Below are positions 6,734 through 47,390 of a stretch of DNA of 64,000 nucleotides, one piece after another. The stretch spans positions 352,001-416,000 of the forward strand of contig CAXXUA010000015.1 of the NCBI GenBank assembly GCA_963663765.2. Direction: 5' to 3'. Below the pieces are notes generated by a model that searched no databases, was not told the origin of the DNA, and saw only the letters and a program-made list of their open reading frames with translations. This DNA comes from Candidatus Poribacteria bacterium. Lineage in GTDB: Bacteria > Poribacteria > WGA-4E > WGA-3G. The position numbers and the translations under genes are program-made. Each line of letters starts with the position of its first letter. Within the stretch, counting starts at the first letter, position 1.

Positions 6734-6905
6734 CAGGACTTACGCACCCAACGGTAGGCGGGGAATGCCTAAACGGCATTCATCCCCGGGGAATACCATA
6801 AGGTATTCATATCGTTGATTTGGCGCTGGAAACCGAAAAAATGCTGAAAATTACACCATTTTCGTCATAATACTTCATCAAATCATGAAATCTGCGTAAG
6901 TCCTG
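6734..6905. mobile_element. MITE family A, copy 1 (172 bp)
   Basis: TIRs CAGGACTTACGCA / TGCGTAAGTCCTG; flanks TGGTA / TGTTA (5-bp TSD, 1 mismatch); three further copies in the window. Confidence 0.85.
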
Positions 6906-6930
6906 TGTTAAAACAAAGGGGAAACAAAAA

Positions 6931-7329
6931 GTGAAAGGAAAATTCATTGCATCTGCAGAAGTTGAGCGAGACCAATTAGATTGGGGTACAGTCGGTTGGT
7001 TGAGCCGACCAGAGTCTACTAGTGCAAAAGATATTGTTGCTATGGAAGTCAGTTTATCACCTGGCTTTGGACATGATTTCCATAAACATCCTGAACAGGA
7101 AGAGGTGATATATGTCATAGAAGGCAGCGTGGAACAGTGGCTTGAGGATGAGAAGCAAACATTAAATGCTGGGGATTCTGTCTTTATTGCTGCGGATGTC
7201 GTCCATGCATCCTTCAATGTTTCGTCTAAACCAGCAAAGTTATTTGTTACCCTCAGTCCAAGTAAAGGTGAAGAAGGGTACCAACTCATTGATGTATATA
7301 ATGATGCTCCATGGAATACTCTTCGCTGA
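6931..7329 (+). CDS. Cupin domain protein
   Basis: HDFHKHPEQEEVIYVIEG and GDSVFIAADVVH cupin motifs. Confidence 0.85.
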   Translation: MKGKFIASAEVERDQLDWGTVGWLSRPESTSAKDIVAMEVSLSPGFGHDFHKHPEQEEVIYVIEGSVEQWLEDEKQTLNAGDSVFIAADVVHASFNVSSKPAKLFVTLSPSKGEEGYQLIDVYNDAPWNTLR

Positions 7330-7403
7330 AATACTTATATTGTTAGATTGGCAAAAAAAACTAAATTACTTTAAGATATTAAACACCATGTTGTTGAAAA
7401 TAT

Positions 7404-8234
7404 ATGCTTGAAGCACAAGTAACAGAGTCATCTTCGCAAATCCGACAGCAGATGCGGGAATTCTACGAAACATCAGAATCCTACAAGAATCTCTTGTCTG
7501 CACATGACGAAGAATATCTACAAGCCTATGTTAACTTGGTCATCCGTTTTGCGCCATCAGGTTCCAAGATTTTAGATCTCGGTTGTGGAAATGGGATTTC
7601 ATCCCGCATGTTAAACCAAGCATGCTATGATGTAGTAGGGACCGATATTTCAAAACTCTTTCTTGAAGAAGCTCAAGAATGGTGTAATGAAAAACTACGA
7701 TACCAAGTATGTGATGTTTTGGAACTACCTTTTGATAATGATTCCTTTGATGTTATTTGTTCAAACGAACTGATTGAACACCTTCCAGATGTGGAAACTG
7801 CATTGAAGGAGATGATTCGAGTAGTTCGAAAAGGTGGAAGGATTGTACTTTCAGGTCCAAATCTCAGTTCTCCCTTAACACCATTTCTCGACTGGTTTCG
7901 TTTGATGTGTGGTAAAGAGGGTAGATCTATTTGGGGAGAAACAAAAAAGCAAGCATTTCAACAATTAATATACAACTTTAGACTTTATATACGAAAACGA
8001 TTATTAACAAAACATCCAAAATTCATTTATCGTGAACCAGAACTCCAGAACGTTGCTATTGGTGGTGATGCTGATAGTGCTTATTATGCAAATCCTATTG
8101 ATATTGCGCAGTTTTTTAAGTTACATGGTGTAATTATAGAAAAAAAAGCTGTAGGTTTTGGTTTTAAAGGGAGGATTGTTGCTAATATGTTCCCATATTT
8201 GAGTCCTTACATTACTATGGTTTTACAAAAATGA
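7404..8234 (+). CDS. Class I SAM-dependent methyltransferase
   Basis: [26 protein letters not shown]. Confidence 0.85.
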
Positions 8235-9070
8235 ACATCCGTTCAAATGATTTTGTATTAGAAATAGGAAGTGGTCATAATCCAAATATACGTTCAGATG
8301 TATTATGTGATAAATTCATTGATGATGATGAACAACGCGGAGGAAAGATCGTCACTGATAGACCGATTGTAGAAGCAGATGGACAGTTTTTACCTTTTGC
8401 AGATAATTCATTTGATTATGTAATTTGTTTACATGTATTAGAACATGTTGAAGATCCAGAGTACCTACTTTCTGAAATGATGCGAGTATCCACCAGAGGA
8501 TATATTGAAACTCCATCTGAAGTAGGTGAGTTGATCTATGGTTGGCCTTATCATAACTGGATTGTTAACGCTGTTGATGGTAAGCTTGTAATTAGAGAAA
8601 ACGAAAAGAAAGCTGCATTCGGTCAACTTTTTCATACTTTGGCTGCACAGGATAAGTATTGGAGAAAGTTTCATATCATGCACCATCGTCTGTTTCTTGT
8701 GCAATATGAATGGGAGAGTAAAATTGAATATGAAATTATGGAGCAAACGGAATCACCATTGAATTTGAAATGTCCCCAAACCATTGAAGATTTATTGTCA
8801 TCTCCTCACTTAAATGAAAATAATGATCAATTATTAGTAACTATAAAAAGTTTGGTGCCTCGAGATCTTGTTTCACCTATAAAATCACTTATATCTAAAA
8901 GTAGGAGACGAAATAGGAAAACACTAAAAGAGATTCTCGTTTGTCCAAAGTGTAAGGACGAAATTGTTTGGCAAGAAAACAAAATTCATTGTAAGAATTG
9001 TGAACAGGACTACCCAATTATTGATGGAATCCCGAGATTAGCAATTACACCAGAATTTAGACATAAGTAG
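8231..9070 (+). CDS. Methyltransferase-domain protein with C-terminal Trm112-like zinc-finger domain
   Basis: [27 protein letters not shown]-terminus ILVCPKCK...[21 protein letters not shown] overlap with the upstream gene. Confidence 0.8.
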
Positions 9071-9100
9071 TACATTTAACCTAAATTTTCATAATAATTC

Positions 9101-45458: not shown

Positions 45459-45491
45459 CGTCAAATATAACCTATATTTGACGTTATTTTT
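45454..45491 (+). terminator. Rho-independent terminator-like hairpin
   Basis: Perfect 16-bp stem AATAACGTCAAATATA-ACC-TATATTTGACGTTATT followed by a T-run. Confidence 0.65.
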
Positions 45492-45538
45492 GTGTACATG
45501 TTATGAATGTATTTGATACCAGAAAACATTGAAAAAAG

Positions 45539-45567
45539 TTGACTTCCTCACCTATGTATGCTATAAT
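45539..45567 (+). promoter_or_regulatory. Sigma-70 promoter of groEL
   Basis: TTGACT-17 bp-TATAAT with an extended TGn; no CIRCE seen. Confidence 0.7.
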
Positions 45568-45624
45568 TTTATATAAGATTTTTTTTTATTAAAGTCTCTA
45601 ATAGATATTTTTAGGAGGAATTTA

Positions 45625-47253
45625 ATGCCCGCAAAGCAATTAATTTTTAATGAAGAAGCAAGGGTTGCACTCAAACGTGGTGCTGACGTTCTTGCAAATG
45701 CTGTTAAGGTAACTCTCGGTCCACGTGGACGTAATGTGGTTATACAAAAATCTTTTGGTGCGCCGATCGTTACATGTGATGGTGTCACCGTTGCGAAAGA
45801 GATTGAACTTGAAGACCCTTACGAGAATATGGGAGCACAATTGCTGGAGTCCATTGCAACAAAAACAAATGATGTCGCAGGAGACGGGACCACCACTGCC
45901 ACTTTGTTAGGTCAAGAAATCTTACATGAAGGTCTAAAAAATGTAACTGCTGGTGCAGACCCCATGCAGTTGAAAATTGGAATAGATAAGGCTGTTGTCG
46001 CTGCTGTAGATGCAATTACTGCACAAAGCCGTGATGTTAACACCTATGAAGAGATTGTCCAAGTTGCATCAATCGCTGCCAACGATCCTGCAAATAACAG
46101 CAATATTGGTACACTCATCGCAGATGCAATCGAAAAAGTTGGGAATGACGGTGCTATTACTATAGAAGAGGGTAAAACATCGGAGACGACTGTTGACATT
46201 GTGAAAGGAATGCAGTTTGACAGAGGTTTTTTGTCGCCTAACTTTGTTACTAACTTAAAAGACCAGACCGTAGAACTTGAGAATCCATACATTCTAATCA
46301 ATACTGGTAAAATATCTACGGTTGTTGACTTAGTGCCAATATTGGAAAAGGTGATGCAGCTGAGTCGTCCCTTACTGATTATTGCTGAAGATGTTGAAGG
46401 TGAAGCTTTGTCAACTTTAGTAGTTAACAAGTTGAGAGGGAACATGCAAGTTGCAGCCATTAAAGCACCTGGATTTGGTGATAGACGAAAAGAAATGTTA
46501 GAAGATTTAGCAATATTGACTGCAGGACAAGTAATTTCTGAAGATACTGGTATTCGTTTAGAAAACATTGTTGTAGGTATGTTAGGTACTGCGCGTAGTG
46601 TACTTATTGATAAAGATACTACAACCATTGTGGGTGGTTTTGGTGCAAAAGAAAGTATTGAAGGGAGAGTCGTACAGATACGTAGACAGATTGAAGAAAC
46701 TACATCGGAATATGATAGAGAAAAACTTGAAGAACGTCTTGCGAAACTTGCAGGTGGTGTTGCTGTTGTCAATGTAGGTGCTGCAACCGAAATCGAAATG
46801 AAAGAAAAAAAAGCAAGATGTGAAGATGCGCTTGCTGCAACGCGTGCTGCCGTAGAAGAAGGGATAGTTCCTGGTGGAGGTATAGCGATGCTGCGTGCTA
46901 TCTCAATAATTGCGGAACTTGAATTAAAAGGAGACCAAAATACAGGTCGCAATATTGTTCAGGAAGCATTACGTTCTCCAGTTCGCGCTATTGCACAGAA
47001 TGCTGGTTTAGAAGGTGCAGTAGTACTTGCAAAAGTTGAAAATGCCGAAGCCAATTATGGATTCAACGCTGCATTAGAAGAATATGGTGATATGCTTGAA
47101 TTTGGAGTGATTGATCCAACTAAGGTTGTTCGGTCTGCGTTACAGAACGCTTCCAGCATTGCTGGCTTACTATTGACAACCGAAACATTAATCACAGAAG
47201 TTGAGGAACAGGTAGATTTTCCTGATGCTGACATGCATGATGACTATATGTAG
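45625..47253 (+). CDS. groL: Chaperonin GroEL (orphan paralog, no adjacent groES)
   Basis: [52 protein letters not shown]. Confidence 0.96.
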
Positions 47254-47268
47254 TTGTAATGTTACCAA

Positions 47269-47390
47269 CAGGACTTACGCACCCAAGGGTCGGCGTGTTT
47301 TGTAAGCGCGCCGGAAACCGAAAAAATGCTGAAAATTACACCATTTTCGTCATAATTCTTCATCAAATCATGAAAACTGCGTAAGTCCTG
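47269..47390. mobile_element. MITE family A, copy 4 (122 bp) carrying one unit of the 41.7-kb array
   Basis: Perfect TIRs; perfect 5-bp TSD ACCAA; internal GTCGGCGTGTTTTGTAAGCGCGCC (47289-47312). Confidence 0.88.

Follow-up and report, generated by a model that had tools for sequence, protein, structure and literature searches.

ISPlag1, an insertion sequence of the cyanobacterium Planktothrix agardhii, is described as an element of 1306 bp with one open reading frame (ORF) of 337 amino acids of the IS701 group and a terminal inverted repeat (TIR) of 29 bp (Christiansen et al. 2008, PMC2464740), and it is listed under IS701 in PMC9366434. PMC2266710 reports that IS701 members nearly always duplicate exactly 4 bp of the target, and gives 'around five' bp for the emerging families IS701, ISH3 and IS1634. 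Another described group of repeats, the GTAG-tagged palindromes, occurs as singletons, inverted pairs and clusters reiterated in tandem, and some of its families are located inside longer palindromic carriers (Di Nocera et al. 2013, PMC3733652). [quoted passage not shown] The explanation that we prefer, at a probability of roughly 0.55, is a single non-autonomous MITE family of the IS701 type, the centres of which were entered or replaced by independent hairpin modules.

Direct reading of the window found the four elements, of 122-212 bp, where a preliminary description made from the sequence alone had placed them (Table 1), and the 13-bp TIR CAGGACTTACGCA and a conserved right arm are common to all, as claimed there. 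When up to two mismatches were allowed, CAGGACTTACGCA gave nine matches in the window against 0.85 expected, a number reached by none of 100 shuffles. Eight of the nine are the inward-facing ends of the four copies, and the ninth (49170) has no partner. The TIR is exact at seven of the eight ends, the exception being the right end of copy 2 with two mismatches. By alignment and part-by-part comparison the left arm comprises 18-19 nt, the right arm 78-79 nt (about 78 bp had been given) and the middles 75, 115, 104 and 25 nt in copies 1 to 4, respectively. The right arms of copies 1, 3 and 4 are 96-99% identical to one another and 80-82% identical to that of copy 2, and the arm of copy 4 is nearest to the arm consensus. 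The observation of shared ends and a shared arm around differing middles is confirmed. Folded as single-stranded DNA, the copies are far more stable than shuffled sequences, with z = -6.7 (copy 1), -7.1 (copy 3), -4.8 (copy 4) and -2.3 (the diverged copy 2); the two ends of the element are paired with each other in these folds, and in copies 1-3 the cassette is closed by a stem of 8 bp, CAACGGTA/TACCGTTG. The four copies have no protein-family match and are located between ORFs, each in + orientation and 3' of a + strand gene. Copy 4 starts 16 nt past the groEL stop codon, and copy 1 ends 26 nt upstream of the start of a cupin gene.

Flanking duplications of 5-7 bp had been claimed for each copy. 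The lengths stood, but the repeats are exact in only two of the four (copies 2 and 4, 7/7 and 5/5), the other two having one mismatch (copy 1, 4/5; copy 3, 5/6). The duplications were assessed on 13 complete elements, namely the four of the window and nine from loci of a genome scan with the 19-nt right end as query (loci numbered L below). Exact flanking repeats of at least 4 bp were found in nine of the 13 (five of 5 bp, the others of 7, 7, 6 and 4 bp) and a 5-7 bp repeat with one mismatch in the remaining four, whereas 0 of 156 mismatched left/right flank pairs reached 4 bp.

Table 1. Positions of the repeat features in the window.
Feature	Position	Strand	Description
MITE copy 1	6734..6905	+	172 bp; left arm 6734-6752, cassette 6753-6827, right arm 6828-6905; flanks TGGTA / TGTTA
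MITE copy 2	21944..22155	+	212 bp, most diverged; cassette 21962-22076; target-site duplication TATTTTA
MITE copy 3	44938..45138	+	201 bp; cassette 44957-45060; flanks GTGCCT / GTACCT
MITE copy 4	47269..47390	+	122 bp; cassette 47288-47312, right arm 47313-47390; target-site duplication ACCAA
Free-standing hairpin pair	41440..41508	-	GAATGC/GAATGTC with ATTGATTACTTGATTTG tail; not bounded by the 13-bp TIR
Tandem array	41712..42518	+	period 31, 25.5 copies; 26 units of ~31 bp, 16 sequence variants
Inverted array-type unit	42537..42562	-	25-nt, 96% complementary pair with the last array unit
ATGAAGATTAAT, left copy	41692..41703	+	12-bp exact inverted repeat; brackets the array with partner 42594-42605
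ATGAAGATTAAT, right copy	42594..42605	-	partner of 41692-41703

The middles of copies 1-3 agreed with what had been described. Copies 1 and 3 have two GAATGCC/GGCATTC-type hairpins located after GGTAGGCG; in copy 1 these are the units GAATGCC/GAATACC with a GTTGATTT tail, and in copy 3 two tandem units of the form GTAGGCG-GGGAATGCC..GGCATTCATACC-GTTGATTT..GGCGCT. The cassette of copy 2 carries the extra AGCATGC..GCATGCT hairpin, nested in a GAATGTC-type composite unit, together with one GAATGCC unit and three tandem TTGATTT 8-mers. Copy 4 has instead a single hairpin, GGCGTG-ttttgtaa-GCGCGCC (sequence GGTCGGCGTGTTTTGTAAGCGCGCC), of the type found in the tandem array at 41.7 kb. The resemblance to the array unit had been put at 22/24; the array-type match stood, and counting by eye gave 23/25. 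GTAG is present in three of the four MITE backbones, copy 4 having GTCG. The right arms of copies 3 and 4 agree at 77 of 78 positions, while their middles are 21% identical, compared with a shuffled mean of 22%; for copies 1 and 4 the corresponding values are 76/78 and 31% (shuffled mean 28%, maximum 33%). With arms this similar and middles at the shuffled level in copies 3 and 4, the middle is not one continuously diverging sequence in the window; such a sequence, genome-wide, was an outcome that the preliminary description had named as speaking against it. The comparison supports two alternative cargo types between near-identical arms, with MITE ends and cargo that would have separate histories.

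In the GAATGCC-type module, which is about 35 nt long, the order is GGGGAAT-NNN-loop-NNN-ATTCATACC, and between one and three TTGATTT 8-mers come after it; the unit occurs six times in copies 1-3. Confinement of the cargo hairpins to the MITE, a further outcome that would have counted against exchange, was not what was found, as they are present in the free-standing pair of the window (Table 1), in three blocks of locus L002 and in an insertion in locus L003. In the window, positions 41440-41481 match the copy 3 module at 35 of 42 positions, a score reached by 0 of 500 shuffles. The three blocks of L002 are located in one intergenic region, have their own conserved flanks GCTGGCGAGGC .. CTTCCTAACCTC and carry no TIR; two of them share an identical 60-nt stretch (by eye), and one is a hairpin-within-hairpin composite as in copy 2, so that the nested composite is a variant of the module and not a private event. 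In L003 the module forms a gap-free insertion of 36 nt, at AACCCC / CTAAATCC, in an unrelated MITE family, and it is absent from four of the five aligned members, including L004 of the same chromosome record, which provides one pair of filled and empty sites. Stem covariation was assessed in an alignment of 11 simple units, 10 of them distinct: 97.1% of 70 cells are paired, compared with 23-41% in slid controls, and at three of the seven stem pairs both partners have changed, a result that 1 of 500 shuffles attains, the compensatory changes being GCC/GGC to ACC/GGT and to GTC/GAC, and G-C to A-T. On these results the GAATGCC-type hairpins are a repeat family in its own right.

The array at 41.7 kb is built from a GTAG-tagged GCGTGC-tttgtaa-GCGCGC hairpin followed by CCCTGATT. 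The order within the unit, GTAGGCG, hairpin, CC and TGATT, is parallel in organisation to the GAATGCC module. GTAG precedes 25 of the 26 units, and the first is preceded by TTGG. A 17-mer core of the unit, at up to three mismatches, gave 28 matches in the window against 0.04 expected, all of them in the array, in a single inverted unit at its end or in copy 4; in the 10 listed loci of the genome scan the array unit had no match. Adjacent units are the most alike, therefore growth of the array by local duplication is probable. A CRISPR array was ruled out, as the 31-bp units are contiguous and lack the unique spacers of that system. Nor are the units arranged predominantly as inverted pairs, as in repetitive extragenic palindromes (REPs) and their paired form, REPINs: apart from a single inverted pair at the end of the array, the arrangement is head-to-tail, with 26 units in the array and two in copy 3.

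A full-text literature search with the TIR string led to the description of ISPlag1, and CAGGACTTACGCA is identical (13/13) to the first 13 nt of the 29-bp TIR published there (PMC2464740). Beyond these 13 nt the arms of the window elements are unrelated to the ISPlag1 TIR, the host is a member of the Poribacteria, and the interior consists of hairpin modules; what is alike is the terminal 13 nt, an IS701-group DDE transposase between such ends, and the presence in Planktothrix of short non-coding derivatives, among them the 197-bp remnants of PMC2464740. On plasmid p1 of P. agardhii No.365, two exact facing copies of CAGGACTTACGCA (2 matches against 0.03 expected) bound an element of 999 bp (L015:22651-23649), whose two ORFs match the 318-position IS701 family model NF049921, one at positions 2-130 (E 1.3e-51) and the other at 239-317 (E 5e-27), these matches being fragments below the full-length cut-off. 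The right end of this element reproduces the published ISPlag1 repeat and, judged by its sequence, the element is an internally deleted ISPlag1-type copy (999 versus the published 1306 bp). It is located in a stretch without a listed gene, and its flanks are unmatched (ACTAT vs TACAA). Plasmid p4 of P. agardhii carries a 92-bp TIR element with a central GTAG hairpin and the target-site duplication CTTGA, and the whole plasmid contains only this one element together with an IS5-type gene. Five of seven end positions of the TIR fit, by eye, the IS701 family end consensus ---YACT-Y--YR as given in PMC2266710. Taken with the duplications (9/13 against 0/156), the ISPlag1 tip of the TIR and the p1 element with its IS701-family fragments bear out the class assigned at first, and support the reading of the elements as a DDE-type MITE with a variable hairpin middle. 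A search of plasmids with copy 1 gave no match, and a search of phages with copy 4 gave only three weak 37-nt matches to Streptococcus phages (E 0.1), which were taken as chance.

The genome scan returned at least 10 loci, and among the matches listed eight are from Candidatus Poribacteria, one from a Chloroflexota metagenome-assembled genome (MAG) and one from a Coleofasciculaceae cyanobacterium. In all 10 listed loci the 13-mer marks real elements, with a second end or a further element nearby, and the interiors of these elements are unrelated to those of the window. One CCCCTTGATAAGGGG-type MITE family is found in L002, L003, L004, L009 and L010. A second family comprises L001 and L007 of the same MAG, where L001 corresponds to L007 plus 70 nt in the middle with both ends shared, a second instance, in a different MITE family, of constant ends around a centre that varies. 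In L005, from another Poribacteria chromosome record, the interiors are GGCGAGGTT..AACCTCGCC hairpin units; one or two units of about 66 nt are present at 1870-2019 and 2361-2445, a genome-specific cargo of variable copy number. The cyanobacterial elements have a GTAG-GGGTGAACGGCCGTTCACCC hairpin, a close relative of which is in the element of plasmid p4. The core motif of the P-family has no match in the window, and the HIP1 sequence GCGATCGC likewise has no occurrence there, so the genome is not that of a typical cyanobacterium rich in HIP1. The scan suggests that one 13-bp end sequence is common to three phyla.

In the explanation that we prefer, a DDE transposase of the ISPlag1 / IS701_2 type would move the MITE in trans, recognising the 13-bp termini and cutting with a stagger of about 5 bp. 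The basic design would be an end, a short spacer, one GTAG-type hairpin, a spacer and an end, which is the form of copy 4 and of the 92-bp cyanobacterial elements. The centre would be occupied by small repeat families, the ~35-nt GGGGAAT..ATTCATACC module and the ~31-nt GTAGGCG-TGCTTTGTAA-GCGCGCC unit, which would enter or replace the central hairpin and then multiply locally by tandem duplication or slippage, to give two units in copy 3 and 26 in the array. The MITE would spread whichever version it held. As to how the modules move, our guess is either that templates are switched, or recombination takes place, where GGTAGGCG / GCGCY are shared as short boundaries, or that an HUH enzyme acts on single strands; both would fit, since no consistent target duplication flanks the modules. 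Mobilisation in trans in this genome and the order of events (insertion versus replacement) are what we infer from these sequences. A more far-reaching proposal, possible but doubtful, is that the ~35-nt modules are mobile in their own right, which would make them smaller than any described transposable element with a known enzyme, and that they home into the centres of MITEs and of other palindromic carriers. MITEs with IS701-type ends would then serve as vehicles in a three-level parasite-on-parasite hierarchy, hairpin in hairpin in MITE, with a putative enzyme or replication mechanism. Because the same 13-bp ends are present in Poribacteria, Chloroflexota and cyanobacteria, the spread of modules could also cross phyla.

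Several points weigh against the explanation of an IS701-type MITE with captured modules. The duplications found here have a mode of 5 bp and a range of 4-7 bp, compared with the exactly 4 bp given for IS701 (PMC2266710); the 92-bp Planktothrix element likewise has a 5-bp duplication. A transposase gene bounded by the same TIR, which had been suggested as a check, was found as the fragments on plasmid p1, and no IS701-type transposase was found in the window or among the 10 listed loci, where fragments of IS982 (L010) and of IS630 (L009) were all that was detected, so the transposase link rests on another phylum. Candidates next to a TIR in these loci proved to be CofD, RtcB, tRNA synthetases, or IS982 and IS630 fragments without these ends. 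Next to the GAATGCC module, GTAG is absent from L002, from the 41.4-kb block and from L003, which has it on the 3' side instead; the tag accompanies the array unit and the MITE backbone, not the module in other contexts. The ends of the modules are not sharply defined, and there is no consistent target duplication around them, a GGCG..GGCG repeat being seen by eye at some, a possible GAATCC-type repeat at one and none at others. In the MAFFT alignment about 10 of 17 positions agree between the 3' half of the copy 4 hairpin and the TTGATTTGGCGCT tail that the other copies have, and for that reason copy 4 could be a deletion derivative and not the basal form. The census is small, with four window copies and about 10 others; most related loci are from MAGs, in which binning errors are possible; and the filled/empty pairs cover the inner module (L003) and the 70-nt segment (L001/L007), not the four window MITEs.

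Of the alternatives, the one that survives best differs from the preferred explanation only in mechanism: the cassettes could have been swapped without a dedicated enzyme, by gene conversion or template switching between loci with hairpins, at GGTAGGCG on the left and GCGCY-GG on the right. GTAGGCG and GCGCY enclose the array unit, the copy 4 hairpin and also the GAATGCC units of copies 1-3, the hairpins of copy 2 are nested in hairpin loops at three levels, and the lack of a consistent target duplication around the modules is as this mechanism would have it. However, the module insertion of L003 is located at a site without such boundaries, and there is no direct evidence of conversion tracts. 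We regard such a swap as rather improbable. Slightly less probable still is that nothing was captured at all, and that an ancestral MITE interior has been changing by internal tandem duplication, slippage and deletion, the free-standing blocks being old copies without ends. Copy 3 is clearly duplicated in tandem within itself, 8-mer tails of one to three copies are found, and local duplication accounts for the growth of the array; ACGCAGACC, in the flank of the block at 41.4 kb, is by eye faintly similar to the left arm, and the weak alignment of the copy 4 hairpin with the tails of the other copies could be read in the same way. Such purely internal change is difficult to reconcile with the L003 module, a clean 36-nt insertion in a MITE family of unrelated interior with a sister copy lacking it on the same chromosome record, or with the L002 blocks, which have conserved flanks of their own and no TIR. 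The middle of copy 4 also shows only shuffled-level similarity, despite 97-99% identity of its arm to those of copies 1 and 3.

It is very unlikely that the conserved parts owe their maintenance to host selection on a regulatory or RNA element, for example mRNA-stabilising hairpins or an outward promoter, and not to mobility. The four copies are all intergenic and in the same orientation 3' of a + strand gene; four copies would share one orientation by chance in one case in eight. The stems covary, and every right arm contains the same weak, outward-facing promoter-like match (9/12), CTGAAA or CTGATA, 16 nt and CATAAT, at 6844-6871, 22094-22121, 45077-45104 and 47329-47356, but such matches are not above the level of shuffles. 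A search of the whole window with Rfam 15 gave no match at gathering score, and a permissive search (E up to 1) of 41300-47600 gave three matches, all far below gathering and none credible; no terminator-like site was found inside any copy. The duplications and the differing neighbours of the copies indicate insertion events instead. Transposition of the IS200/IS605 type is not known to make target duplications. It is hardly credible that the whole element including its ends is a REPIN-like unit moved by a REP-associated tyrosine transposase (RAYT, of the HUH class) and not a DDE MITE: its imperfect palindromes are GTAG-tagged as in the GTAG repeat families described in PMC3733652, and the array ends in an inverted pair, but clear target duplications of 4-7 bp abut the ends, which are those of an IS701-family element, and no Y1/HUH gene is present among the 59 window ORFs (all but three of at least 100 amino acids) and the 39 of 91 stop-to-stop locus ORFs of at least 90 amino acids that were scanned, shorter ORFs and the other 52 locus ORFs lying outside the scan.

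The surroundings of the array contain further repeats. The 1.56-kb divergent intergenic region 41372-42935 is a repeat nest with rough two-fold symmetry: AACCTAAGTTGCT, read by eye, is present at about 41598 (+) and about 42733 (-), and the free-standing hairpin-module pair on the left is matched on the right by a degenerate CTCCATGAAATCC-GTTGATTA remnant at about 42759-42779 (+). The 12-mer ATGAAGATTAAT, copies of which bracket the array (Table 1), gave three matches in the window at up to one mismatch against 1.26 expected; three were reached by 15 of 100 shuffles, which is weak alone. The same 12-mer also adjoins a MITE in L002. Positions 42587-42605 (-) share a 16-nt exact match, ATGAAGATTAATTTAT, with L002 2122-2137; taking out the L002 MITE with one copy of its duplication lengthens the match to 19 nt. 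This match ties the array flank to the site at which, in another Poribacteria record, a different MITE is inserted, and suggests a further shared repeat or carrier end. An array located inside a decayed copy of the window MITE is not claimed here, as the right arm matches the left flank of the array only in a 19/20 stretch (a score reached by 1 of 500 shuffles) and nothing was found in the right flank. Positions 42698-42720 have a 23-nt exact match to L009 54-76 (local blastn, E 5e-7), which overlaps a promoter-like TTGAAA-16-TAGTAT upstream of a HEAT/TPR gene at 42931; the stretch could represent a promoter cassette common to both or a further small repeat. The array also yields spurious ORFs of 303 and 276 amino acids at 41646-42557 (-), which automatic annotation could call genes.

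Among the genes of the window are those for FG-GAP/ASPIC, TPR, alpha-2-macroglobulin and C-type lectin proteins. This gene content, the hairpin modules in common and the eight Poribacteria loci among the 10 listed all point to a Poribacteria origin. The groEL gene (45625-47253) has no groES upstream and is located between MITE copies 3 and 4, which are in direct orientation; groEL as the cargo of a composite transposon between these copies was rejected, as the outer flanks GTGCCT and ACCAA differ. A patatin-like phospholipase is encoded at 32992-33930 (+) and scores above the curated cut-off of the model NF041079 for a CBASS cGAMP-activated phospholipase (234 bits versus 200); the genes directly beside it include no evident cyclase. 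Tandem paralogous genes occur as two pairs, TafC-like genes of 260 amino acids, 838 bp apart, at 4867-6490, and DppA-like substrate-binding genes at 37960-41371.

The nested-repeat design has precedents in other bacteria. Small dispersed repeats of Nostoc and Anabaena in MITE-like contexts, attributed to Elhai and colleagues in 2008, are reportedly hairpin-forming, mobile sequences of 21-27 nt that occur nearly always within larger repeats and often beside short tandem repeats. They follow the same 'Russian-doll' logic, with differing sequences and in a different phylum. The GTAG REPs and REPINs, including the GTAG-15 dimers of Anabaena variabilis in long palindromic carriers (PMC3733652), resemble the hairpin units of the window in being imperfect palindromes of 20-40 nt, in their compensatory stem variants and, as regards the array unit and three of the four MITE backbones, in a one-sided GTAG tag. 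They differ in that the carrier in the present case is a MITE of a DDE family with TIR and target-site duplication, that GTAG does not travel with the GAATGCC module, and that head-to-tail arrays, which PMC3733652 calls under-represented, dominate. The idea put forward at first, of a link between two normally separate mobile systems, was overstated, since PMC3733652 already describes GTAG repeats nested in longer palindromic carriers. A MITE of Porphyromonas gingivalis with a minisatellite (PMC4596501) is similar in having a variable tandem repeat in its interior. Organism and sequence are unrelated to those of the window. We know of no evidence that the internal repeat of that element also lives outside the MITE.

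What is added here is not a new category but a defined DDE end-family as carrier, a Poribacteria host, near-identical arms around either of two alternative cargo types, and the occurrence of these ends in three phyla. The elements provide a sequence-defined case in which MITE ends and cargo would have separate histories. This is of use when repeats are annotated in Poribacteria and other uncultured genomes, whose assemblies such elements break and in which they give rise to spurious ORFs; a false one of 303 amino acids comes from the array by itself. A repeat family of Poribacteria is at the same time tied to a characterised cyanobacterial insertion sequence. If the modules prove to be independently mobile, they would offer a tractable system for the question of how repeats of less than 40 nt spread.

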